64,000 nt of DNA from Psammoneis japonica (GCA_008632985.1 QPGO01000160.1:62001-126000), one strand, 5' to 3'. Counted from the first letter of the stretch, positions 590 through 36,563 are shown. Notes: generated by a model from the sequence alone, not told the origin. Translations and numbers: made by a program.

Positions 590-3500
590 ATGTTGTCAGA
601 CGAACCCCTTGAGGAAAAATGGCTCAAGCATGACGCCTCTCGACAAACTACTACAGGAGATGCTGGAGTTACATTTGCAAGGAGCGACACGTCGAGTAAA
701 AACAATTTAACGCAACAACAGTCTTTAGCAGAAACCCATCAGAGAAAAGAAAAAGCGGAAGACGACACAGAAGAGTCGTCCTCGGGTGATGATGATCTCA
801 ACAACATGGATGTTCCTCTCTTCAAGTATGCTCGTCTCGTCGGCAGTCTTCCTCGTCGTAGCGCTCAAGACAGTACCGTGAGCGGTTCCAACAATTACTT
901 TAGCGACCCCTGCACGTGCAGTGCCATGGCGTGTGTCGTGTTGCCTCCTCCATTCGATAATTATGGAGGTTTGTCATCTTCAAAATCGGATGGAATGGAT
1001 TTGAATAGTAACAGTATGGATTCTGCAGCAGCTGCAGCAGAAAACACGGCTGCTCTGGTTCAGCCACCCTTTTACAATATAATCGCCATGGGATTCGAGA
1101 CGGGTAAAGTGTATGTTACGGATGCGACAACGGGAATATCGGTAGTCACGGAGCAACTAATTGTGCACAATATCGTTTCTAAAGAAGCACCGATTGTGGA
1201 CTTGTCCTTTGATGCGAGTGGAACGCACTTGGCAGCCGTGAATCAAATGGGACTTGTGGCAATCTGGGACTTTAAATTTCAAACGGTTGCACCCAATCCA
1301 CTCCAGAGAGATCGCGGCGGCTCGCTATTATCCACGGCGGTTGCGGCTCTCTCGACTTGTTCTATTCAAGCATCGCGAATGCCCTATCCCGCCTCGTTTG
1401 GTCCACCCACATGTCTCAAGCTGGATCCCGCGTACAAGAAACGCCGTGAAAAGGCCGTCTTGGTTGGGTTTGCCGATGGCCGTCTCGTGTTGACCAAGCG
1501 TAGTTTCATCATGTTTGGACGACGCACCGACTCGGTCATTTATCAATCTCCTACAACGAAAAGTGGTGTCGGAGGCATTGAGGCCTTGGCATGGCGTGGT
1601 TCTCTCATTTCGTGGGCCGATTTCAGTGGAATCAAACTGTTTGATGTCGAGTCCATGGCACGGATCGCTCATGTGGACCGTCCAAGTGGTGCACGGCTTT
1701 CTCTGTATCCGACACTTTCGTCCTTGAGTCCGAGTCTTTTGTTTGAAACGTCGGAATCCTTTTTGATTGGGTGGGGCGATTGTGTTATGGCCATGACCAT
1801 CAAGGGAACCAATAATGGCGGAGGAGCCGTAGTGGAGGATACCGCAGCCGTAATGAGTGGTGGCGATGCGCTGCAGCTGCAGCAGCAACCAAGTCACTGA
1901 GAAAGGTAGAGTGTACCATGGCGTGGGAACTGGACTGTGTCGCGTGTGGCGTAGTGCCGCTCGACAAGGATCACTTGATTGTGTTGGGTTTGTGTGTACC
2001 CGACGAAGCATCACGGGACCAAAGAGACAGCGACGACAACGATGACGACAATGTGGAACCAGGACGAGTCAGTCTAGTGTCGCCTACGTTACAACATCCA
2101 AACAATGAAAACGATTTGGAGGTTCACGTCATTTCACGGTCTCAGGGTACGATTGTACACTGCGATTCGCTTGCGCTGTTGAAATCGCATCGTGACGCTA
2201 CAAAATTGGGAGAGTCGGCATCTGGCACGGCCATCATGTCGTCTTTTGCCTTGCCGAGAATGAATGATGCCATTGAGCTCGAAGAGGAAGGTCCTCTTGA
2301 CGAAGAGGAAGACTTTGATTTTGAGGTGTCGCTCTTTCAGTCGTCGTCCAGTACCAGCCAAAAGAGAGAATTCAAGGATCCGCATTTGAAATGGGATTTG
2401 ACCGACCTTGCGTTTGAACGGGAGGAAGCTGTTGATGGCAAGGAGAAATCTTTACAAGTGTTTGGTGCTGTGGATGACACAAGCCAAGATGAGGACGACG
2501 ATGCATGCAGTGTTGCTAGCGACGATTATGAGTTTCTGTTTCGTCCTTCAAGCTGCGCGCCCATGGAATCAAAAAATGGCCCGCAAGGCTACCCACCCAT
2601 TATGGTGATTCATTCGCAATCTGATGCGGTACTTGTTCGCACAAGAGATATTGACGATGCCATCTCACAAGCCCTTTCGGATGGCAAGCATGCGACGGCT
2701 CTTCGATTAGGCTTGAGATGCAAACGAGACTTGCGCAGACATAGTATTGTCGATTTGATCAACGGATACCTTGGAGCCCTACTGCGTTTACCCAAGGAAT
2801 CCCCCCGTGATGTGCCAACTGCCCCCAGCGACTTGTCAGTTCGTAGACTGCAACTTGCCGTAAAGACTCTACCGATTCTATTGGGTGGTGATGCCAGACG
2901 TTGGGAAGAGTGGACGTCTGTCTTTGCGGAGATTCCGGGGGCGCTCTTTGTATTGAAGAATCGTCTTCCAGTTCGCGGTAAGCTTTGAATTTTGTGCTGT
3001 TCTGATTTTCATCTTGCCTTTCTCTGACACTTCTTTTTCACTTGTTGCATCTTTGCAGATCCAAAACTCACACCTCATACCTATCAAAAAGTACTCGAGA
3101 CGATGCTACTCGAGATTGAAAGGATGGAAGCCGAGCAGGATGACTATCACCAGGCTAAAGACCATTTTCTCAGCGCCCTTTATGCATGGGGACCTTTAGC
3201 AGCACTTCGAGATCACATCAAGTGCTTTGCATACACCGACCGCCATATGCTGGTAGCCCAAGCGGAGAGTTTTCATCCCCACCCTAGGCTGGACGAAGCG
3301 GAAGCTTCTCTTCTTCGGCGTCTGCACCAAAGTGCTGTGGGTTTTCTCGAGCTTCATGAACCGTCAGTGAACTCAACAAATGTAGACGCTCCAATTGAGG
3401 CTACCGCTTCCTTGTCGGACGAGTATTCAGGCTCGTTAATCGGCGTTGATGCACTCTTGTCAAGCTTCTTGCAACGCACGAAGCTTGGTCAATTGGATGG

Positions 3501-5081
3501 AGGAACGACAGAGGAAGTAGAAGCCATCGGCAGTCACGTCGCTCTTGAGGCTTTGGCAGAGCTCCATTGGATGAAGGAGCAGTATGATTTAGCTCTGCGA
3601 TACTTCTTACTGATTGGCTGCTTTCACGCTGTTCCAGAACTCGCGATATTAGAAGACGCGGCGGAAGCAGCCGTTCATCGTGCTGGAGACGCCCAACTCC
3701 GCGGAAGTACCGACCGACGAAACGCTCACGTACTTGCAATGATTGACGCGCATCACGTGCATGGCTACCTACTCAAAGAGAGTTTTATGCGGTCGGAATC
3801 CAAGGATCTGCATGAAGACGATGAAACTCGGCAAATATTGGAGTTTCTTCCTCCTCTTGTGTCATTGATTCGGATTGTCGGACTTGATTTAGCTGGAGAT
3901 TTTCTTGTGGAGCACTGTGTTCACGCTGTTGGTGGCACCTCACGTCGCTATGGCGACTCGACATTCCCGGTGAATGAAATCGCAAACCAGCTGACTGGGT
4001 ACCCTAAACTCTTGTATTGGTTTCTGCATTTAATATTTGAAAGAAAACCTGAAGTATATGTCAAGTTTCCCAACACAGCGATACCGCCTTCCGAAATCCG
4101 TGAGCTTCATCGGACTCATTTGGATCTTTACGTTCGTTTCGGAGGCGATGCCAAAGACTCGGCAAAGTTTGTTGCGGGGCAGGGACGAAATCTGAGCGAC
4201 GCGAGTACTCCACTGCTGAGATTCTTGAAGGTATGACTACGCGCATCTTGTTTCCTGATACTGTGTTTTTGTACTAAGCCTTTTTTTGCCTTTTCTCGAT
4301 TGTTCAGTCTGTCTTACCACTCGGTAGCATCCGTGCAGATGAAGTAAAGCGAGTCCTGGAAGCACACCGACTAGGAAAGGAGGATCCATCTGTTGTGGAT
4401 ACTAAAGAGGAGGTAAAGTTTCCCCATTACTTTGCGTTGGAGATCGCTTATGTTGCTGAGCACTATGGAAGTGTAAATAGTGAAGAAGAAGCAAAGTCTA
4501 TTCTTGAGCTCTACCTCAAGGGCACAGAGTCGGTGACCTTGGCTGCCTTCTACGCGGAACGCAATACCAAGCATTCATCTATGCTATGGGGAGAGCTGCT
4601 CGACCGATGCCTAGATCGGAAAGCTCGTTCCACAACGGATGGGGCGAACGCTGGAAAAATCGATGGAAAGTTGTTTGGGTCATTGCTTGAGGCCGCTGCC
4701 TTGAGCGGAGCCGATCTATCTCATTTAGTCAGTGAAATCCCTCAGGGCATGCATATTGAAGGTCTCCGCCCGAGGCTTGTGGAAGCCGTATCTGATTATC
4801 GATTGAAGTTGCAAATGCACCAAGCGGCCTCGAATATTCTTGCGCAAGAGAAGATTAATCTGCTGCGTGAACTTGGACATAGATCGAGACGAGGGACTCG
4901 CGTGCACGATGTGCAGGAGACATACAAGAAGAACAACGAAGAAACTGAAGGATCGTACCACAGAAGAAATGCAACAAAAGACGAGCATTCCGACAAACCT
5001 GATCTGAGCAATCTAGCGCCGAATCGACCAACCCAACGGCTTAGTCGGCGTCGTCCTTCTTTCGCACTTCCAGTTCGATAG
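590..5081 (+). CDS. VPS41: Vps41-like HOPS subunit (WD40 propeller plus helical repeats)
   Basis: PLFKYARL start, WD40-like segments (IVDLSFDASGTHLAA, IEALAWRGSLISWAD), MAWELDC, and C-terminal LWGELL / IPQGMHIEGLR..L..AVSDY motifs. Introns 2978-3058 and 4231-4307 join the ORFs in frame. One apparent frameshift near 1895. Confidence 0.75.
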
Positions 5082-23759: not shown

Positions 23760-25858
23760 ATGAAAACTTTCCTCAAGGGGCTTCTTCTCCTTGTAGCTTT
23801 TAATCTCTCCTGCGAGGCTATTGGTAAGTGATCTACAAACTGCAGGCAAACCAGATGAGCTTTGCGACGATGAAGGATGCGCTCACTTGGTTTTTATTAT
23901 CCGTACTACTTTTAAGACGCTTCGAAAGGTTCGGAAGTAAACGAGGAGATCTTGACCGAGGTGAGTGTACCTTAATTCTTAAAATACTGCAGATGCACGG
24001 TTTTTGATACCCACTCATCATTTCCTTCATATCTATGGATATTTGCTCAGCCCGACCTTGGAGCCGACAATGCTGGTGGTGAAGGAAGAAAGTTAGCTGG
24101 AGTAAGTATCACATAGTTTGGAAGAAAGAGTATCAGTTGCTTTGCAAACTAACCACATTATTGCTTCATCTTAAACCTACCGCAGTATACTGGGGCATGC
24201 TGCTTTGCTGACCACTGTCTGGTCTTGGCAGATTACAAATGTAGGAAACAAGGAGGCCACTTCAAAGGATATCGCAGCAAGTGCGATAGGAAAGTTTGTC
24301 CGGCTGCCTATGGTGGTTGCTGCCTCCCGGGCGGCTCCTGCGTCATTTACAAGAAGAAATATTGCCGTACCTTGGGCGGTACCTGGCGCGGTCCCACAAG
24401 CAATTGCGCCAACGCGTATTGTGGGGGGTATTCAACGCCTAATCCTACACCAAGTCCTAGTCGTCCTGTTGCATGCTGCCTCAAGTTTCAAAACAAATGC
24501 CGCTTTCTTAAAACGCACATTTGTGAAAAAAGGGGTGGTCACATCGTCGGCAACAGGTGCAACCAATACACTTGTCCAGCTGCCTATTCTGCCTGCTGCT
24601 GGCGCAATGGAAAGTGCAAGAACGTCAAAACAAAATGGCAGTGCAACAAACGTTACGGAACTTTCAAAGGATTTGGTACTCATGTCATCCTGGAATCTGT
24701 GCGCACAAGCCAACGCCGCCACCGACCCCCAAAACGGGCGCCTGCTGTTTGCAGGGAGGCCATCATTGCCTAGATGTCACGGAGAACGAGTGCTACCTCA
24801 AGTACGGAACTTTTAAAGGAGTAGGGACGTCTTGCCGATCCGGAATCTGCAAGGTTCATCCCCCAAAGCCAACGCCGCCACCGAAGCCAAAGACGGGAGC
24901 TTGTTGTTTGCAAGGAGGCCATTATTGCCTGGATATAACGGAAAAGGAGTGCCAACTCAAGTACGGAACGTTTAAAGGAGTCGGAACGTCTTGCCGATCC
25001 GGAATCTGCAAAATTCATCCTCCCAAGCCAACGCCGCCGCCGGCACCCAGCCCACCCGGAGCCTGTTGCTTCAAAAAAGAGAAATGCCGCATCGCAGCGA
25101 AAGAATGGTGCATCCTGGAAGGAGGAGATTTTCAGGGCCCTGGTACTACTTGCGAGAAACATTGTAGCGGTGCATGCTGTGGAATAGGTGGCCAATACTG
25201 CGACAATGTCACGGAGCACGATTGCTACCTAAGGTCTGGAAAGTTTCACGGCAGGGGCACTTCTTGCCACCCTGATATTTGTGACCCAACGCCGCCACCG
25301 ACCCCGCCACCGCCTCCGACACCTCCTGGCGCTTGTTGCTTTAAGAATGGAGAAAAATGCAGAGTCACGACAAAAGAATGGTGCATTCTTGAAGGAGGAC
25401 ATTTCCAGGGCTCTGATACTACTTGCGAGAAGCATTGTCCTGGTGCCTGCTGCGGACTAGGTGGTCAATACTGCAATGATATCTCGGAGCACCATTGCTA
25501 CCTTCAGTTTGGAAAGTTTCTAGGTACAGAAACTTCTTGTCACCCTGACATTTGTAAGCCAACGCCACCCCCTACTTCACCTCCCACGCCAGATTTCGAA
25601 GGAGCATGTTGTTTCAAGGATGCTGGGAAAAAATGTCGATTCACCACTCAAAAATTGTGTAACCTTGAAGGTGGGCATTTCCAAGGCCCTCACACAACAT
25701 GCGAAACCGATTGCAAAGGTGCCTGTTGCTTGCGTCGTGGTCCCTACAGGACTATTTGCGCTGATGTCACGGAGATTGATTGTCGTCGCAAGTATGGCAA
25801 GTTTCAAGGCACTGATAAGACGTGTCAACAACCTGGAGTCTGCGAGGCCTACCCGTAG
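23760..25858 (+). CDS. GACC-repeat gene C (paralog of B): 12 modules, 1-bp frameshift near 24683
   Basis: Exons 23760-23823, 23917-23960, 24051-24101 and 24186-25858; same exon phases as B; pro-peptide ends EGRKLAG. Reads ACTCATGTCAT versus ACTCAGTGTCAT in gene D. An out-of-frame Gly/Ser tail follows the stop. Confidence 0.8.
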
Positions 25859-26241: not shown

Positions 26242-26372
26242 NNNNNNNNNNNNNNNNNNNNNNNNNNNNNNNNNNNNNNNNNNNNNNNNNNNNNNNNNNN
26301 NNNNNNNNNNNNNNNNNNNNNNNNNNNNNNNNNNNNNNNNNNNNNNNNNNNNNNNNNNNNNNNNNNNNNNNN
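26242..26372. other. Assembly gap (131 N)
   Basis: N run. Confidence 1.
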
Positions 26373-26395
26373 AACGAGGTGGAGACCGACGAGGC

Positions 26396-26510
26396 GGGTT
26401 GCACAATGGCGAGAACGACCCCAGCGAGGAGGGTGGACGACGAGGAGGGCTTTAGCCCGACGAGAAGGCCACACGACAAGCTGTGGGTCGTTCTCGCCAT
26501 TGTGCAACCC
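26396..26510. repeat. Perfect 26-bp inverted repeat
   Basis: GGGTTGCACAATGGCGAGAACGACCC (26396-26421) and its exact reverse complement (26485-26510). Confidence 0.95.
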
Positions 26511-27205
26511 AACGAGAAGGTCGTAACCGAGGCGCGTTGAGTGCACACGGGAGCGTATATAGGGTCTCCCGCTGTGAGGATTTTATATATATAATTCGAC
26601 CGTTAACTACTTAGGGAGAGCTTTCATGTGCAAGACTGAAGTAAAAAAGTATTGCAAAAGAGTACTTTTGAACAGCAGGTTTACTTATAGGCGACGGTTT
26701 TTGGTGCCGACTGGCAGTCGCGCAATCATTCAAAATTATTAACGTATATTCATCACAGCACCTAAAGCCGTTATTACGATCCAAATTTAAAAACGTTGAT
26801 GGGATTGATTCAAATCCACCACGTAGAATTATACATACTGGTATAGTTTAACGGCAGAATCCTCGTAGTCCAAAGAGAGACAGTAAGTTTCTACTTACAC
26901 CCCTTCTACACGATTTTTATACTGACGTACACTTGTGTACATTTTGTACCGAGAAATTCTGTGCGACTCCGAACGGTGCGCGGTCGGGTTGATGGCTCAT
27001 AATTTTTCCGGAATAGATTTGGCAACTTTCAGAAGAAGTAACCCGAAAGTTCTCTGAAAGTTGATGTGAATATAACATCACATGTCTGCACACACACATG
27101 ACCTTGAAACGCGCCAGAATTTTTACATCATCAGATTCACCACCACCCGCAAGACTTCTGCGACACCGTGCTAAAGATCGAGACTGGAGACACGGCACGG
27201 AGGAG

Positions 27206-29870
27206 ATGTCGTCTCACAAAAAAGCAGACGCAGCCACACAGCTGTCACAGAAGCCACCCGCAACAACAGAGCAGCCATGCAGCATGCCCACTTCGACCCT
27301 TGAGGTGCCAATCATGAAGGCGTCTGGGGCCCCTTCCACCACAAGTGGCGACAAGTCTGCAATCAAAACGTTTGACGCGTTTCAAGACAAAAAACAAGAC
27401 AAGCCGTTTCATGGATTGGAGGAACGTCATGTGGATGGACACCACCTCAGGACACTCATGATGCGCTTCAGCAAGTTCTTGTCAGATGAGCCCATCTGTC
27501 GGCATGACAATCTCTCCAACGGGCTGGCAGGAATTGATGGAAAGCAGCAAATTTTTGGAAAGGTCAAAGAAGCGCTGAAAATGAAGTTCCCCAAGCACCC
27601 TGACTGGGAAGACGAGGACAAGTGGCACAAGCCTCTGTTCAAAGACGTGGCAAAGGCCACTGACAAAGCCAACCTCCTCAGCATGGAGTGTTCTGACAAA
27701 AGGACTTTGCCCCTGGTTCCAAACGTGTCTTCAGAATGTGTTTGAGCCAAGCAGCGAAATGCCATTCTTACGTCGGATGGAAATTCAATGTTGAGACGTG
27801 AGAATGGTGCATTCGCAAATGACATCGAGACGTTGCTTCTTGCTCTTGTTCTGCAATGCAATTGTCCAATGATGAATGATGGCCCTCTTCAGCAGCATTG
27901 CTGGATTTTGATGGGTGCCATGGCTGCTGGACGTGGAGGGGAAGTGAGGTGTCAACGGCACGATGAATGGTTCTGGGATTTATTTTATGAGAATTTGGAA
28001 GCAACGTGGTGCGAGCCGAAGACTGTGGATTTGCATGGGCTCCTCTTCCCACCAAACAAGAAGTCTTGTCTGTTTGATCTCTACCATGCTTTTGCGTGTT
28101 TCCATTCTTGTGAGAAAGGTCTCTGTTGTCCAGATGGCATGGAGAAGGAGCTCCACAAGTGCACTTTTCCAGACTTGTGGAGCGTGAGCGACAAGCATGT
28201 TGCCGCCAAGTTGACTGCTGTTGTTCGAAACAAGGTCAACCCGGTTCTACAGAATGATTGTTCTTCAAAGTCTGTTCGAGTTGGTGTGGCTACATTCTTG
28301 AATTCGCATCGAGGAGTGTCAGTTGAAGAAGTGGACGCTCGAGTTGGATGGGCGCCCGGAGCTGCCAATGGCAAGACACACAAACGAATTGCACTGCAGC
28401 TTGCTCTTCCAGCAGCAAACGCAATGATGGGCTGGGATGATGCCACTGGCAAAAAATTTGCGCCGAATCTTGAATGTCTTGGTGGCCACGCGCAAGATGA
28501 TGTCGAACGGCTCATTGAAAAACTGCATGTGACATCTGACACCCTCAAACAATTTCCACCAGGCGGGGAGCTTCGTCCGTTCTTGCGCTCCTGCACGGCT
28601 GCCATGATTCAGCATCATGCTGAAGTTGCAAAAGAACTCTGCCAGAGCCATCAGATTGTGCGCACCTTGGAGCGTGCTGCGAAGGAAGCGAAGATTCGTG
28701 ATGGCGATGCCACTGACACATCACAAGTTCTTCGAATCTGGGGATTGAGAACAGATGCAAGCTTTCGAGACCGCAATCCAGACCTGTCGAGCGAGATGAA
28801 CCTTGCTGCACAACTGAAACAGCAGAATGAACTGTTGACACGTGTGTTGTTGGCACATGACGCTCAACGTGCCGAGATTGCAGATCAGTCTCAGACCCTT
28901 CGTAACTTGGAGATGGCTCAGCTTGAGGCCAACCGGTCCAGCAGGAAAAGGCCCATTGAACTCCTGTCATCAGACGAGGAGGAAGGTTGCATGATGGATT
29001 TGGTGGAGGGGACAAAATCCAATCAAGACGACATGATCAACAGTGACGTCATTGATGCAAACGTCGCCTCCACTCCAAACGGTGCGGCTGCCAACTCTGT
29101 GAGAACACCAGATGCTGCTGATGACGCGCCGGCTGCTTCTCGACCTCGCATTGATTCTGACGAGTCAGCGGCTGCGACTGAGCCTGTGGCGGCCTCGGCG
29201 CCAAAGCCAAAACCTTGCATTGCCGCAATGCTGCTCTCAACACGGTTTGCAAGTGCTGAGTCTTCCAAGAAGAAGAAGAAAAAGAAGCTGACACTGCAGG
29301 AGAAAGTGGATGGCTTGGTGAACAGCACAGGCGCAGGAGTGTCTTTGCATGTGTTGCTCACTTGGTTCAAGCAGCATGGACACCTTTCATCGCCGTCAAA
29401 GGAGCGGCTTTTGCAGCTGCGGTTCCCGAACAAGGAGGCAGAGCCTCAGAAATTTAAAGCCGCCACGGAGCTTCTGGAACACATTGTGACTGATGACCAG
29501 TGGCACACGATCCAACTTCATGACGACAAGTCCTTGGCTTTTCACAATGTTTGTCATGCCATGCAAAATGCATGCCTGGATGCGATGAGGAAGATGGAAG
29601 TAGACGCCGGCATGAAAAAGCCACTGGAGAACAAGAAGAAGGAACAAACTCAGCCTCACTTTGTAGGTCTTGGTCTTTGAGTTACAACATACAAGAAAAA
29701 GCAGAATGTGTCATCCATCGGCGAGAAGCAAACGAGCGCCTTGGCAGGATTTGTGAAGAAGGTTGCATCCAAAGCCACCGGCACTAGTCCCAAAAAACCC
29801 GTGAACCCACATGCAAAGAAGCAGGCCAAAGTAAAATGCATGTCAAGTTATTGTGTGTTACAGTGCGAAT
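27206..29870 (+). pseudogene. Tyrosine recombinase (Crypton-like), copy 1, with in-frame TGA stops at 27743 and 29678
   Basis: ORFs 27098.. and 27788.. share a frame. Motifs GRGGEV (RxxE), SSKSVRVG (HxxR box) and RVGW, with His (CAC 28379-28381) where the catalytic Tyr is expected. Start position approximate. Confidence 0.65.
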
Positions 29871-30010
29871 AGAAGCTTGCACTGTAGAAACATCTGTTTC
29901 AAATTTAGCACCGTGCAACTGCTGTGCGTCCGGTTGATTCGGACGAAGCAAGTGTGCTTTTCTCTCTGACGACTCCAAAACGTGCCAATCATCAAGATGC
30001 AAGTAGACCA
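29830..30010 (-). pseudogene. Degenerate duplicate of the RusA 3' end
   Basis: Aligns with ~30175-30340 (CGTCCGGT.GATTCGGACGAAGCAAG, TGCCAATCATC). Confidence 0.7.
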
Positions 30011-30237
30011 AGGTAAAACACATGCACAGTGAAAAAAACTGTGCACCTCAAATTTGGTTTAGTGCAACGACCAGTCGATTCAGATGAACAAGTTGAAAGT
30101 GCTTTTCTCGCTAACAACTGTGCAACTTGTCTTCATCACGACACAAGTGGGCCAAAGTAAAATGCAACTGGGAGAAGTAAAATGCACATCAAGTGATCAG
30201 GCGCTGCAGCACATTCACAGAACCATCTGTTTCTGTT

Positions 30238-30876
30238 TCAAATTTCATTCAATGCAACGACTGTTCGTCCGGTAGATTCGGACGAAGCAAGCACCTTTTT
30301 CGCCGACAACTCTGATGCTTGCCAATCATCTTGATACAATGTTGTGTTCAAGCTGTCCAAAACAAACTTGCAGAGATTGTCAATGTCTCCTGCATCCTTG
30401 AGACTCTTCCCAGGAAAAGCAAATTCAATCCGAGCCTTCAACAAGACACCGCCACGGAACTTTGGTGCTGAATCTAGTCTGGATCGGCAGAGAGCTGATG
30501 CCACGCTTGCAAACTCTTTCTCATCAGCTTGGTTTGGATTGCAAACGTTTCCATTCCACCCACGCTTTGGTCTTGACTTTGGTGTTGGCTTTCCGACAAC
30601 GTCAAATTCAATGGAAGATCCGGTGCATGAAAATGGGGGCATGTTCGAGACGGAGAATTTGGGCGATCGGATCTTTCGAGGACGCCCTCGTTTCTTCTTC
30701 CTTGATGGTTCACCTTTGCCAGCACTGCCAAATCTTGATGATGCCTGCAGGTTTGGAGCAACAGCCACGCTCTCAAAGTCTTTTCCACCTTCGTGGTCGC
30801 TTGCGCTGTCTGCAACCATTGCGTCGTCGGCAGTTCCTCCTTCAAAACTTCGCTTCTTGACCATTCTGCCATCCAT
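30238..30876 (-). CDS. AT-hook plus RusA-family Holliday junction endonuclease
   Basis: KKKRGRPRK AT-hook; GKPTPKSRPK; DIDNLCKFVLDSLN; LYQDDWQ; GRTVV. The RusA DxDNxxK...D...DD catalytic pattern is present. Confidence 0.85.
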   Translation of the reverse strand: MDGRMVKKRSFEGGTADDAMVADSASDHEGGKDFESVAVAPNLQASSRFGSAGKGEPSRKKKRGRPRKIRSPKFSVSNMPPFSCTGSSIEFDVVGKPTPKSRPKRGWNGNVCNPNQADEKEFASVASALCRSRLDSAPKFRGGVLLKARIEFAFPGKSLKDAGDIDNLCKFVLDSLNTTLYQDDWQASELSAKKVLASSESTGRTVVALNEI

Positions 30877-31239
30877 TGCACTTTGGGCATTCAGGAAACT
30901 TCTCTACAGTCCTCCTCAGTGCAGCAGGAGAAAAGGCTTTCCGTGTGAGGATTCGCGTGCGATGGCAACATGTTTCCATCGCTCATCGCGTGAGCTTTCG
31001 TGTTTCGATTGATTTTTGATTTTTTTCAAATTTCAATTTTTCCGGAATAGATTTGGCAACTTTCAGAAGAAGCAACCCGAAAGTTCTCTGAAAGTTGATG
31101 TGAACATAACATCACATGTCTGCACACACACATGACCTTGAAACGCGCCAGAATTTTTACATCATCAGATTCACCACCACCCGCAAGACTTCTGCGACAC
31201 CGTGCAAAAGATCGAGACTAGAGACACGGCACGGAGGAG

Positions 31240-32560
31240 ATGTCGTCTCACAAAAAAGCAGACGCAGCCACACAGCTGTCACAGAAGCCACCCGCAACAA
31301 CAGAGCAGCCGTGCAGCATGCCCACTTCGACCCTTGAGGTGCCAATCATGAAGGCGTCTAGGGCCCCTTCCACCACAAGTGGCGACAAGTCTGCAATCAA
31401 AACGTTTGACGCGTTTCAAGACAAAAAACAAGACAAGCCGTTTCATGGATTGGAGGAACGTCATGTGGATGGACACCACCTCAGGACACTCATGATGCGC
31501 TTCAGCAAGTTCTTGTCAGATGAGCCCATCTGTCGGCATGACAATCCCTCCAACGGGCTAGCAGGAATTGATGGAAAGCAGCGAATTTTTGGAAAGGTCA
31601 AAGAAGCACTGAAAATGAAGTTCCCCAAGCACCCTGACTGGGAAGACGAGGACAAGTGGCACAAGCCTCTGTTCAAAGACGTGGCAAAGGCCGCTGACAA
31701 AGCCAACCTCCTTGGCATGGAGTGTTCTGACAAAAGGACTTTGCCCCTGGTTCCAAACGTGTCTTCAGAATGTGTTTGAGCCAAGCAGCGAAATGCCATT
31801 CTTACGTCGGATGGAAATTCAATGTTGAGACGTGAGAATGGTGCACTCGCAAACGACATCGAGACGCTGCTTCTTGCTCTTGTTCTGCAATGCAATTGTC
31901 CAATGATGAATGATGGCCCTCTTCAGCAGCATTGCTGGATTTTGATGGGTGCCATGGCTGCTGGATGTGGAGGGGAAGTGAGGTGTCAACGGCACAATGA
32001 ATGGTTCTGGGATTCATTTTATGAGAATTTGGAAGCAACGTGGTGCGAGCCGAAGACTGTGGATTTGCATGGGCTCCTCTTCCCACCAAACAAGAAGTCT
32101 TGTCTATTTGATCTCTACCATGCTTTTGTGTGTTTCCATTCTTGTGAGAAAGGTCTCTGTCGTCCAGACGGCATGGAGAAGGAGCTCCACAAGTGTACTT
32201 TTCCAGACTTGTGGAGCGTGAGCGACAAGCATGTTGCCGCTAAGTTGACTGCTGTTGTTCGAAACAAGGTCAACCCGGTTCTACAGAATGATTGTTCTTC
32301 AAAGTCTGTTCGAGTTGGTGTGGCTACATTCTTGAATTCGCATCGAGGAGTGTCAGTTGAAGAAGCGGACGCTCGAGTTGGATGGGCGCCCGGAGCTGCC
32401 AATGGCAAGACACACAAACGAATTGCACCGCAGCTTGCTCTTCCAGCAGCAAACGCAATGATGGGCTGGGATGATGCCACCGGCAAAAAATTTGCGCCGA
32501 ATCTTGAATGTCTTGGTGGCCACGCGCAAGATGATGTCGAACGGCTCATTGAAAAACTGC
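31240..32560 (+). pseudogene. Tyrosine recombinase copy 2, truncated
   Basis: Near-identical to copy 1 including the internal TGA; homology stops abruptly after GAAAAACTGC at 32560. Confidence 0.7.
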
Positions 32561-33912
32561 GGCCGATCGACAACCACCGCTCCCTCCGACAATGGCGCTT
32601 TTGGCCGTTTTGACCGGTGCGACACCGCCTCCCGACCCCCACCTTGCTTGACAGTGTTGTGAGCCATTGGGTCGTGCCATGTGAGTGAGCCCTGGCTCTG
32701 GAATGGGTCAGAATGACTCAAAATGTGGTGAGTTCTGATTCTCGTGGAATCGTGCGTCTTTTTCCCCGTTCTCGTTCGCAATGGCGCTCACCTTGAACCT
32801 CCTTGTCCCGTGTCTTGATGTGTGGGAATCGAAGATGGGGATGTCGAAGTCCACGGGTCTACGCCGTCGCCGTCACCATTTTTGGCTCCGTCACCGTTCC
32901 ACCATGGCTTGCTGCTTCTGTCCCGGTCCATGCCGTACCACCATGGCGCTGCCTCCGTTCTCCAAGCTTCTGCCACGATTTGTATGGACCGGACCAGTCA
33001 CTCGATCCCAAGCTCCGACTTTCTACCATTGCTCATGCCGATTTGCAGCCTGCTTTTGTCGTCCTGCTCCGTGGAACCACCAGACTGCCTCTCTTCCATC
33101 TGTCCTCCCTGCCCGCCGTTGACGATCCAGGCACCCCAAGTTTTGACCCTACTGGTGAGTTTACATTGGTCGTTTGCTCGTTGTTGCTTTGTATTTGTAG
33201 AAAAGTATGTTCTTACCTCCTTGTGTTGTTCCATTTCACCGCAGATGTGGTCATTTTGCAGGCGCAGGTGCCGTGCTTCTCTGTGCAAGTTTTTGTGCTC
33301 ACCAATGTTGTCTTGCTTTGTTCTTTTTATTGAAGATATGGTACTAACTCAAATAGATCTTTTCTCTCTTTTGCGCCCTCTTGCAACATCGTTGGATTGC
33401 TGTCTTTGCGTCTCTCTCCGGCACTTGCATCATTGTCGGTCTCTTCGCTCGTGCTTCGCTCGCGTCGTCTCTTCTCCACGCTCGCTTCCCCTATTAATTG
33501 TACGTACGTAATTTCTACATAAATGCCTCATATATAGAGTACCAAATTACATAGTAACGGCCGTTAACGGTTTTTAGAATTACTTAGGCCCACCCACACT
33601 CGAGCAGTGGGAGTCCATGCAGTTTTTCCCGGTGTTGTCTGTCCCTCCATCCCTCCTGCCTACGCCTTTGACAGAGTCATTGAAGCCTTTTCTGCTTTCC
33701 ACAAGCCTAGAAGAAAGGGCAATTGAAAATACTTATAGGGAAAATAGCAATAAGTAATTGACGGTCACAGTCTTAGCTGCTTTCGGTCTAAGACAAATAA
33801 CTGTTTCACGATACCGTTCCCTCATTTTTTTTGTCTTGTTTCTTCTCGTTCACTAGAATCTCTGAAAGAACCGACACCTACCAATCGCTTCATCAAAAGG
33901 ATTGATGGAAAG

Positions 33913-36563
33913 ATGAAGACCTTCCTCAAGACGTTGTTTCTCCTTGGCTCTTTTGCTCTCTGCTGCGAGGCAATTGGTGAGTGATCTGCAAACTTCAGAG
34001 CGTGATTGAGCTTTGCGATGATGAAAAAGATGTACTCACGCATTCGTTTCGTTATCCGTACTTACAACTATAGACGCTTTGGAGAATTCGGATGTGATCG
34101 AGGAGACCTTGGTCGAGGTAAGTATCGCTTCGCCATTGACATTCTGGACACCTCTATATGATCCGAGTCATCACTCATCATTTCCCTCTGTGGACTCTGG
34201 CTCAGCCCGACCTCGGCGACGAAAGTGCTGGTCCTGACAGTTGGACTGGAAGGAAACTAGCCACTGTAAGTCGCAGATATTTTAATCTATGAAATATTCA
34301 CAGCTGTGCTGATAGACTTAACCAACCGCGCATCATTGTCTTATTTCTCCCCTCAGTATACCGGAGCGTGCTGCTTTGCCGACAATTGCCTCGTCTTGAC
34401 AGAGCATAACTGTCGGCAAAAGCGAGGATCATTGAAAGCCTTCGGCACGAAATGTAGCAGGAAAGTTTGTCCCGCCGCCTATGGTGCTTGCTGCCTTCCG
34501 GACGGCTCCTGCAAGATATTCAAGAAGAATTTCTGTCATACCAAACGCGGTACCTGGAAGGGTCCCGGAAGCAATTGCAAAAAAGCTCATTGTGGGGGGT
34601 ACAAACCGCCTAGTCCTCCTTCTGGGTATAAACCACCTACTCCTTCCGGGTACAAACCACCTAGTCATACCCCAAGCCATGGCAGTGTTGTCGCATGTTG
34701 CCTCAAGAATCAAAACAAGTGCCGCTTTCTTAAGAAGCACCTTTGTCTAAAACAGGGCGGCCACGTCGTTGGTAACAGGTGCACCCTGAAGACCTGTCCC
34801 GCTACTTTTTCTGCCTGTTGCATGCGCAATGGAACATGCAAGAACGTCAGAACTAAAAAGCAGTGCGACGATCACTACGGAACTTTCAAAGGATTTGGTA
34901 CTCAGTGTCATCCTGGAATCTGTACGCACAACTCGACGCCGCCGCCGCCGACGCCGCCAAAGACGGGCGCCTGCTGTTTGCGAGGAGGCCATTTTTGCGT
35001 AGATGTCACGGAACATGAGTGCTACGACAGCGGTGGAACGTTTAAAGGAGTAGGAACGTCTTGCAGCTCTGGAATTTGCAAGATTCATCACCCCAATCCA
35101 ACGCCGCCACCGCCACCGACCCCCAAAACGGGCGCCTGCTGTTTGCCAGGAGGTGATCATTGCATGGATGTCACGGAACATGAGTGTCACCTCAAGTATG
35201 GAACGTTCAAAGGAGTAGGAACGACTTGCAGTTCTGGAATCTGCAAGATTCATCATCCCAAGCCAGATGTCGCTACGGGAGCTTGTTGTTTCAAGAATGG
35301 GGAACCATGCCGAATCACCACCGCAAAGTGGTGTCACCAAGAAGGCGGGCATTACCAAGGCGATGATAGCCTTTGCGAAAAAACGTGCCCCGGTGCGTGC
35401 TGTCTACAAGATGGATACTACTGTTTGGATGTGTCGGACTTTGAGTGCTACCTCAAGCATGGAACGTTCAAAGGAACAGAAACGTCATGTCGACCCGGAA
35501 TCTGCAAGTTTCATCACGTCACGCCAACTCCACCACCACCACCGACCCCAAAGACGGGCGCCTGCTGCCTGCAAGGGGGTTACTATTGTGTGGATATCTC
35601 GGACCATGAGTGCTACGACAGCGGTGGAACGTTTAAAGGAGTAGGAACGTCTTGCAGCTCTGGAATTTGCAAGATTCATCACCCAAAGCCAACGCCGCCG
35701 CCGCCACCAACCCCAAAGACGGGCGCCTGCTGTTTGCCGGGAGGTGATCGTTGCATGGATGTCACGGATTATGAGTGCTACCTCAAGTACGGAACGTTCA
35801 AAGGAGTAGGAACGACTTGCATTTCTGGAATCTGCAAGATTCATCACCCCAAGCCACCAACGCCGACCCCAAAGACGGGCGCCTGCTGTTTGCCAGGAGG
35901 TGATCGTTGCATGGATGTCACGGATCATGAGTGCTACCTCAAGTATGGAACGTTCAAGGGAGTAGGAACGACTTGCATTTCTGGAATCTGCAAGATTCAT
36001 CATCCCAAGCCACCAACCAAGACGGGCGCCTGCTGTTTGCCCGGAGGTGATCATTGCTTGGATGTCACGGATCATGAGTGTTACCTCAAGTATGGAACCT
36101 TCAAGGGAGTAGGAACGACTTGCAGTTCTGGAATCTGCAAGATTCATCATCCCAAACCACCAACCAAGACGGGCGCCTGCTGTTTGCCAGGAGGTGATCA
36201 TTGTTTGGATGTCACAGAGCAAGAGTGCTACCTCAAGTACGGAACGTTTAATGGAATAGGGACGTCTTGCAGTACCTAAGTTGCAAGATTCCTCCCCCCA
36301 AGCAAGATGTCGAGAATGGAGCGTGTTGTTTCAAGAATGGAGAAAAATGCCGCGTCACCACGAAGGAATGGTGTCACCTGGAAGGTGGGAATTACCAAGG
36401 CCCACACACAACGTGTGAGAAACATTGTCCCGGTGCATGCTGCTTGCAAAGTGGTCACTACAAGAGCCTTTGTATTACTGCCTTGAAGCACGAATGCGAT
36501 GGCAATTACGGCATATTCAAGGGCACAGATAAGTCGTGCGATCACCCTGGGATTTGCCATTAG
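33913..36563 (+). CDS. GACC-repeat gene D (paralog of B/C): 15 modules, His-rich, 1-bp frameshift near 36277
   Basis: Exons 33913-33976, 34074-34117, 34206-34265 and 34357-36563; pro-peptide ends TGRKLAT; near-identical internal repeats GACCLPGGD..CKIHHPKP. Confidence 0.85.

Follow-up and report, generated by a model that had tools for sequence, protein, structure and literature searches.

Tyrosine recombinases exchange strands in two steps by way of a Holliday junction, and in Xer recombination at cer/psi, as in CTX-phage integration, one strand exchange makes a junction that is resolved by other functions, host replication or host enzymes finishing the reaction. Of all classes of eukaryotic DNA transposons, Cryptons, whose definition requires a tyrosine recombinase as the sole mobility enzyme, are the least understood, and a mechanism has been inferred for them only by analogy with bacterial integrases. 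In Goodwin's model, as presented in PMC3212892, excision yields a circle, which then integrates at a short sequence that it shares with the target. In the available part of that paper, the CryptonS group of oomycetes and Phaeodactylum (Kojima and Jurka 2011, PMC3212892) is described as having stramenopile hosts, a length of 3-6 kilobases (kb; 4671 base pairs (bp) in CryptonS-1_PTri), and one large protein with an N-terminal recombinase and a conserved C-terminal part, with no reverse transcriptase (RT) and no DDE transposase. In Tec1 and Tec2 of Euplotes, which the same source mentions, a tyrosine recombinase is accompanied by a second DNA-processing enzyme and one of the two is thought to finish the intermediates of the other. 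The present report concerns a 64,000-nucleotide (nt) stretch of Psammoneis japonica DNA (GCA_008632985.1 QPGO01000160.1:62001-126000), referred to below, at its full length, as the window. It holds what is probably a decayed insertion, longer than one unit, of a Crypton-type element that resembles CryptonS in host, length, protein layout and the lack of RT and DDE transposase, and whose own second gene encodes a RusA-family Holliday-junction resolvase with an AT-hook.

Comparison of the window with itself shows that 27001-28526 recurs as a direct repeat at 31035-32560 (1526 nt, 98.165% identical, period 4034). The 16-mer with which the unit starts occurs twice in the window against 0.05 times expected, so the repeat is not due to chance. 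An earlier note, made from the sequence of this DNA alone, had listed four parts here -- a recombinase gene (+), a 3' fragment of a RusA gene (-), a full RusA gene (-) and a second recombinase gene (+) diverging from it -- and all four lie where it placed them; the span that it gave, 27001-31034, is exactly one 4034-nt repeat period. The features of the locus are as follows.

26373..27000, no strand: left flank, within a repeat of the genome from which sequencing run X1 was made
27001..27010, plus strand: the 10-mer AATTTTTCCG at the left junction, repeated at the unit junction (31035-31044)
27001..31034, no strand: one complete 4034-bp unit (recombinase gene, RusA stubs, RusA gene and half-spacers), defined by the repeat period, with its junction between 31034 and 31035
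27206..29680, plus strand: Crypton-type tyrosine-recombinase gene, copy 1, 825 codons, recognised from HMMER relatives, alignments, fold and codons
29893..30023, minus strand: dead, frameshifted stub of the RusA 3' end, 29893-29993 being 77% identical to 30232-30330 and translating to the RusA C-terminus
about 30040..30090, minus strand: second, shorter remnant of the RusA C-terminus, seen in translation (SSESTGR and VVALNQI-stop)
30238..30876, minus strand: RusA-family Holliday-junction resolvase gene, 212 amino acids (aa), open reading frame (ORF) intact, Pfam PF05866 and PHROG 140
30319-30387, minus strand: complete catalytic block of RusA, DIDNLCK...YQDDWQ
30673-30690, minus strand: AT-hook RGRPRK of RusA, residues 63-68, in the context KKKRGRPRKIR
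30877..31239, no strand: divergent spacer of 363 bp from the RusA start (30876) to the start of the second recombinase copy (31240), from the ORF coordinates
31035..32560, plus strand: partial second unit, head to tail, the first 1526 bp, with its recombinase copy at 31240-32560, cut at 32560
32561..33400, no strand: right flank, the same or another high-copy sequence, judged by summed contig depth

Similarity of copy 2 to copy 1 ends after 32560, and the 363-bp divergent spacer is present solely across the head-to-tail junction. The two genes and the RusA stubs together occupy 27206-30876 of the unit, which leaves no space for a further mobility gene. When six ORFs of the unit were searched against Pfam, RusA was the sole match, and no RT, RNase H or DDE transposase was found; the recombinase thus appears to be the unit's only mobility enzyme, as in a Crypton it must be.

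The reading frame of recombinase copy 1 runs from 27206 to 27742, meets an in-frame TGA at 27743-27745, and continues from 27746 to 29680. At E<=1e-3 an exhaustive HMMER search detected 379 relatives, of which 165 reach E<=1e-10 and 47 reach E<=1e-30; the best has E 2.7e-104 and 39% identity. Most of them are 750-830 aa long and align in a single stretch through the window's stop codon, and the C-terminal region is also conserved in the family. In alignments of 40 and 48 sequences, R243, E246 and K272 are invariant, and 90% or more of the sequences keep S356, R358, G381 and Y392. The family pattern is R243, K272, [K/R]355-S-x-R358, W/H382 and Y392, in which [K/R]-S-x-R replaces the H-x-x-R of the classical tetrad. 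The earlier note had taken the large ORF for a tyrosine recombinase, and these residues agree with that, as does the fold, which is the two-domain, Cre/Flp-like fold of the superfamily: among the structural matches listed, 46 of 50 are tyrosine recombinases, Ndc10 or topoisomerase IB, and the top ones are complexes of a recombinase with a Holliday junction.

In a language-model atlas, the neighbours of the closest relative, P0002, are clusters from Oomycota and Bacillariophyta together with the NDC10_II, GCR1_C, DUF3435 and DUF3504 families, and NDC10/GCR1_C and DUF3504 are given as Crypton-derived in the available part of PMC3212892. Relatives with names come from Thalassiosira oceanica and from a Rhodella transcriptome. 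No family for the recombinase was found in Pfam or NCBIfam, and a word-index search with its 630-aa ORF scored none of 7998 candidates. None of 53 pattern matches in IMG/VR encodes a relative of the recombinase, and 60 viral RusA loci in the same collection are without one. Among 185,579 prokaryote genomes no true relative was detected, the only one of 315 pattern matches to pass being a 34-residue, chance-like hit in an archaeal metagenome-assembled genome (MAG) of 65% GC, without RusA. By the distribution of its relatives, the recombinase family is eukaryotic. The element most likely belongs among the Cryptons, near CryptonS, where it is set by published descriptions and atlas neighbours rather than by Repbase sequences; the link to Cryptons drawn in the earlier note fits both. 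Like Cryptons, as they appear in the available part of PMC3212892, it lacks long terminal repeats (in the window), and it may also share with them a short sequence common to the element end and the target.

Both recombinase copies in the window are evidently dead, and the window gene is to be regarded as a pseudogene. The TGA is codon 180, where the relatives have Arg, and codon 392 is CAC (His, 28379-28381), where 11 of 11 other aligned sequences have the catalytic Tyr; locus L001 of the metagenome set described below, for example, reads GKTYK against GKTHK in the window. Copy 2 has the same TGA (31777-31779) and the same His (32413-32415), and in addition Cys in place of the invariant Arg243 (31966-31968). 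Neither copy therefore has the full catalytic residues of a tyrosine recombinase, every one of which is retained in relatives L003, L005 and L008. The two copies differ at 28 sites, comprising 27 transitions and a single transversion, with 13 (our own count) at CpG; within the frame, 13 differences are non-synonymous and 11 synonymous. Such divergence is neutral decay of the kind seen in methylated repeats. Splicing across the stop was considered and rejected: a 69-nt GT..AG interval, 27727-27795, would keep the frame, but the relatives align through it, with Arg at the TGA. Programmed read-through was likewise rejected; L002 has an in-frame TGA 25 codons away, but its 98.5%-identical twin L003 has CAA there, which is ordinary decay, and L003 differs from L002 by further CpG changes and a 1-nt deletion as well. 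These metagenomic twins show the same CpG-to-TpG/CpA pattern as the window, including TGA and CAA derived from CGA at one codon, and in both settings the pattern fits cytosine methylation of the elements.

The neighbouring RusA gene is in a different state. The match of its product to Pfam PF05866 spans positions 2-115 of the 124 in the profile and scores 41.2 bits, where the cut-off is 22.8 (E 3.1e-10); PHROG 140 is matched with E 2e-11. D164, D166, N167, K170, D174, D183 and D184, which we take from E. coli RusA to be the catalytic residues, are invariant in all six of the aligned RusAs that are element-linked or close. The ORF belongs to the RusA family of resolvases and is predicted to cut Holliday junctions. 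It also contains an R-G-R-P core with basic flanks, a predicted DNA-binding motif of the AT-hook type; this is found again in the RusAs of P0001, L002 and L003, and is absent from those of L005 and L008. Compared with RusA of the E. coli cryptic prophage DLP12 and the lambdoid phages, the protein has the same Pfam-scoring domain, the same D-x-D-N-x-x-K...D-D block and the same catalytic domain of about 120 aa, but it lies in a eukaryotic nuclear mobile element, bears an N-terminal extension of about 90 aa with the AT-hook, and groups in a tree with diatom proteins of 214-401 aa and apart from phage RusA. The longer of the two RusA stubs belongs to an old duplication in tandem, about 340 bp long, which took in the last 100 bp or so of RusA and about 240 bp of 3' flank; a variant without 138 nt between the stubs is present in run X1.

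A RusA profile search gave 18 relatives of 135-401 aa, with clusters named from Chaetoceros debilis, a Bacillariaceae MAG and MMETSP transcripts. In a quick tree, the outgroup of which consisted of 58 IMG/VR phage RusAs matching one short pattern and hence a biased sample, 18 of the 22 long, eukaryote-like RusAs fall in one group (Shimodaira-Hasegawa-like approximate likelihood ratio test (SH-aLRT) 94), while the RusA of L008 and two near relatives lie elsewhere, on long branches; a constraint that makes 21 long RusAs one clade was not rejected (approximately unbiased test, p-AU 0.49). A PDB sequence search with the RusA profile gave no matches at E<=0.01.

Relatives of the recombinase were also sought in JGI metagenome contigs, which were scanned with a seven-sequence alignment; this gave 12 loci, reducing to 8 independent lineages. 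The adjacency of RusA and recombinase on which the earlier note had built its proposal proved to be recurrent: a RusA gene above the Pfam cut-off adjoins the recombinase at 6 of the 12 loci, in 3 of the 8 lineages, and in three gene arrangements. The loci are these.

L002 and L003: RusA tail to tail with the recombinase as in the window, with the AT-hook (E 5e-13 and 7e-13)
L005, L006 and L011: one locus in three samples, RusA upstream on the same strand (E 1.7e-9)
L008: RusA tail to tail (E 3.4e-15)
L001, L007 and L012: less than 0.6 kb of flank each
L009 and L010: 1.5 kb upstream without RusA, 0.6 kb downstream
L004 (3859 bp): the recombinase alone, in a stretch flanked by 31-nt inverted repeats, one of them touching the contig end

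The recombinases of the RusA-linked lineages are only 24-42% identical to that of the window, and those of L005 and L008 are 35% identical to each other. Since eukaryotic DNA seldom contains RusA and the genes are ordered differently from lineage to lineage, three adjacencies arising by chance do not seem credible.

Some of these contigs hold further features. L005 (5090-6181, plus strand; also L006 and L011) and L008 (4341-5504, plus strand) have a third gene in common, with 28% identity over 323 residues (E 5e-24), which keeps H-x-D, H-W-x-H and F-x-F-x-F-R motifs. Its AlkB-like signals are weak -- 25 of 30 atlas matches are to 2OG-FeII_Oxy_2, the PHROG "alkylated DNA repair" matches at E 1.3e-4 and ALKBH2 at about 0.8 -- and it has no Pfam match, while a model from the two-sequence alignment was unusable (predicted local distance difference test score 28.9). 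Possibly it is a dioxygenase, carried as cargo, that acts on DNA bases; no trace of it was detected in the window. Inverted repeats bracket the recombinase gene in L005 (1264-1339 and 5041-5116, 76 nt, 80%), with RusA outside the pair, and in L004 (419-449 and 3829-3859, 31 nt, 94%); these could be sites of recombination or inversion, or an effect of assembly. At L011:3-1175, on the minus strand and 0.5 kb upstream of the RusA gene, there is a fragment of a Harbinger-type DDE_Tnp_4 transposase (E 1.1e-17), which marks that neighbourhood as transposon-rich and eukaryotic in character.

To judge the number of copies, Logan contigs of X1, the one run that contains the stretch (word share 0.50) among three that were listed, none of them from RNA, were mapped on 26400-33400; X1 is possibly the window's own sample, in which case the contigs speak for copy number in that genome and not for spread. 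There are 666 of them -- 177 at 99% identity or above, 224 at 95-99% and 265 at 90-95% -- and they cover all 30 bins of the region. The element sequence is a diverged repeat family in the X1 genome. Summed contig depth is 1218-1800 on the left flank and 2179-3723 on the right, against 55-990 on the element, and with flanks so far above it the insertion must sit in another repeat.

The left end of the unit, AATTTTTCCG, overlaps the palindrome TTCCGGAA (27006-27013) and is a candidate crossover core common to element and target; E. coli RusA cuts 5' of CC, and the core may offer such a place. In one X1 contig (depth 548) the right flank, from 32559 on, is preceded by AATTTTTCCGA, which contains this same left-flank 10-mer. 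A chance match of ten letters at just the predicted place is unlikely, which suggests that the contig represents the empty site. Another X1 contig, a high-depth variant, tracks the RusA side of the element as far as 31036 and then passes into unrelated sequence that is absent from the window; as it departs 2 bases from the unit junction, 31034-31036 is either a true end or a point of recombination. The insertion is accordingly read as 27011-32558, in which one unit stands between two cores and 1516 nt of a second unit follow (1.375 units), though the termini and the target match are judged from this one insertion and GC is all that the right junction has in common with the target. Terminal inverted repeats were not found in 26373-33400. 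Within the spacer between RusA and recombinase, 52 nt from the unit junction, lies a 24-bp near-palindrome, GCGATGGCAAC-AT-GTTTCCATCGC (30959-30982), with 11-nt arms and one mismatch; it could be a binding site for a protein, but by a rough estimate it is only marginally beyond chance.

Taken together with what is thought of Cryptons in general, this arrangement would allow the following course of events. The recombinase would excise the 4-kb unit as a circle, the monomer form of which is predicted to have CAAATTTC joined directly to AATTTTTCCGG; the short core of the circle, AATTTTTCCG with the overlapping TTCCGGAA, would then pair with a similar short sequence in the target, and the recombinase would swap one pair of strands to give a Holliday junction. 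A dimer of the element's own RusA would cut this junction and so complete integration or excision without a second strand exchange, which would remove the need both for homology across the whole crossover region and for host resolvases bound to the cell cycle. Tandem copies would result if a multimer integrated, or if a copy already in place received a second one at its core, and here a later deletion with GC microhomology would have removed the rest of the second unit. The circle, and the use of the core as the crossover site, are inferences, unlike the layout of the locus, the fold and family of the recombinase, the identity of RusA, its repeated linkage, the many copies and the decay, which the analysis does show; the division of labour, in which the recombinase makes the junction and RusA resolves it, is a reasonable conjecture that we would put at somewhat under even odds. 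More speculative still, and on balance doubtful, is a true two-enzyme pathway in eukaryotes, with the recombinase confined to the first exchange at a very short core and the junction left to RusA; if it exists, it would account for the persistence of the pair when the genes are rearranged and for the additional DNA-modifying cargo (the AlkB-like gene) of larger relatives, and recombinase and RusA would form a compact "integrase plus resolvase" system that operates in nuclear chromatin. As to the earlier note, neither of the two outcomes that it named as refuting was obtained; its remark that head-to-tail copies fit a circular intermediate holds to the extent that the tandem order is compatible with one, the circle itself remaining conjectural; and of its two-gene element, the pairing recurs, but the copy in the window is a pseudogene and the insert amounts to 1.375 units rather than two.

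What appears to be new is RusA as the second gene, a Crypton-type element as such being of a known kind. The second genes given for Cryptons in the available part of PMC3212892 are only a C48 peptidase or a Mariner transposase, and a literature search, outside which Repbase entries and subscription journals lay, found no eukaryotic tyrosine-recombinase element with RusA. The element also differs from CryptonS at its ends, the termini not being TATGG and the shared core being 10 nt long as against 5-6; according to the available part of PMC3212892, TATGG is the terminus of the majority of CryptonS elements, CryptonS-1_PTri having CTGTAAG. In the Tec elements a DDE transposase does the moving and the tyrosine recombinase resolves, whereas here the recombinase is the only candidate mover and RusA the resolvase. 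From the Xer and CTX systems the locus would differ in that the resolvase is encoded by the element itself, and in a eukaryote. Flp of the 2-micron plasmid and Ndc10 are only 9-11% identical in sequence to the recombinase, and the element, which is present as a chromosomal copy, has neither REP/STB genes nor 599-bp inverted repeats.

Several observations weigh against regarding the locus as an insertion of a Crypton-type element with a resolvase of its own. The window copy cannot work, given the TGA, His392 and, in copy 2, Cys243, and activity is thus unreadable from it. RusA was not found in five of the eight metagenomic lineages, four of these five being represented by contigs too short to judge, and the recombinase-only stretch in L004 indicates that RusA, though recurrent, is probably not present throughout the family. 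Long RusA-like proteins from diatoms may also be host genes. The "empty site" amounts to 11 letters of one contig from a run that is possibly the window's own sample. The 10-mer is at the left junction only; the right one (32560) falls within the recombinase gene and shows 2 nt of microhomology, which makes it necessary to assume a second event. Neither TATGG nor CCATA occurs within 40 nt of either junction, and no circle junction was seen besides the tandem one.

Other explanations have to be set beside this one. RusA might be true cargo that takes no part in strand exchange, the element being an extrachromosomal circular replicon like the 2-micron plasmid with Flp, and RusA resolving its multimers or branched intermediates. 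A 4-kb unit repeated head to tail at more than unit length would be natural for such an episome, the 76-nt inverted repeats (80%) on either side of the L005 recombinase gene recall those of the 2-micron plasmid, and bacterial-type resolvases of eukaryotic viruses, such as poxvirus A22, do cut concatemers (according to the available part of PMC13236599); but the unit fits two genes only, with no recognisable replication gene or origin, inverted repeats of the L005 type are missing from the window, and the copy is chromosomal, in repeated sequence, and CpG-decayed like a resident transposon, so that we regard the episome as unlikely. The thought that RusA is a passenger captured from phage or host, serving host DNA repair or protection of the element, say, and unrelated to transposition, draws on the readiness of Cryptons to acquire extra genes (the C48 peptidase or Mariner of the available part of PMC3212892), on the third gene with weak AlkB-like signals in the larger relatives L005 and L008, and on the L004 stretch, which is bounded by inverted repeats and lacks RusA. 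It does not sit well with a linkage that persists across changes of gene order and between recombinases 24-42% identical, or with a RusA active site intact in six of six cases, even beside a decayed recombinase. A junction resolvase is, besides, the one enzyme that acts on the recombinase's own intermediate, and a mere passenger seems to us improbable.

That the locus is not mobile at all, and is a segmental duplication of neighbouring host genes, one a domesticated recombinase-like gene (compare Ndc10 and DUF3504) and the other a host RusA, would agree with its position between tandem paralogues (24180-25858 and 34306-36279) in a duplication-prone region, and with the absence of the catalytic Tyr, a feature of domesticated Crypton derivatives in the available part of PMC3212892. 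Against this, the closest relatives all keep the Tyr, and its loss here coincides with a nonsense codon and with neutral decay (13 against 11 non-synonymous and synonymous differences, 27 transitions against 1 transversion); hundreds of diverged contigs in X1 carry the element sequence; and the RusA adjacency recurs in unrelated contigs, all of which makes host genes a very poor prospect. Just as hard to believe, in our view, is that the locus is a piece of a retroelement of the DIRS/Ngaro type, or of an integrated virus (virophage, polinton-like or giant virus) with a tyrosine integrase and a resolvase. Ngaro-type elements do have split direct repeats, the direct repeats here include the start of the recombinase gene, and in many viruses an integrase gene is accompanied by one for a junction resolvase. 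Searches with Pfam and PHROGs found no RT, RNase H, capsid or polymerase domain, however, either in the unit or in the relatives of 7-9.7 kb, and in IMG/VR 0 of 53 pattern matches encode a relative of the recombinase and 60 viral RusA loci are without one.

If the Crypton-type reading with its own resolvase is right, a Crypton lineage that keeps such an enzyme points to the Holliday junction as the critical intermediate, and so provides a testable handle on the mechanism. The locus would also place a resolvase family of bacterial and phage type in the nuclear mobile DNA of diatom-like algae, with an AT-hook added in eukaryote style, and for annotation this means that RusA-like genes in diatom assemblies should not be taken for bacterial contamination. 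Should the pair work as proposed, it would be a small integration system, complete in itself, that acts on eukaryotic chromatin and might serve as a tool in diatom genetics.

The stop common to both copies, the lost catalytic Tyr, the Arg243Cys change of copy 2, the repeated-sequence setting and a gap of Ns at 26242-26372 had not been mentioned in the earlier note. Directly after this gap, at 26396-26510, lies a perfect 26-nt inverted repeat with a 63-nt loop, where X1 contigs show skips of 37-51 nt. The surrounding genes of the window are ordinary eukaryotic ones, among them a Vps41-like propeller, GT47, a DSPc phosphatase, CRAL/TRIO and an HA domain. The paralogous genes in tandem that flank the insertion, at 24180-25858 and 34306-36279, are 73-88% identical and about 10.2 kb apart; no Pfam family was found for them, and they consist of 159-273-nt repeats that encode Cys-rich modules with Pro/Thr-rich linkers. 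On the right flank, at 32566-33400, a 731-nt contig of run X2 skips 98 nt (GG..TG) and, between 33153 and 33244, another 90 nt bounded by GT..AG, so a paralogue of this flank sequence may exist as a spliced transcript or as a copy without introns.

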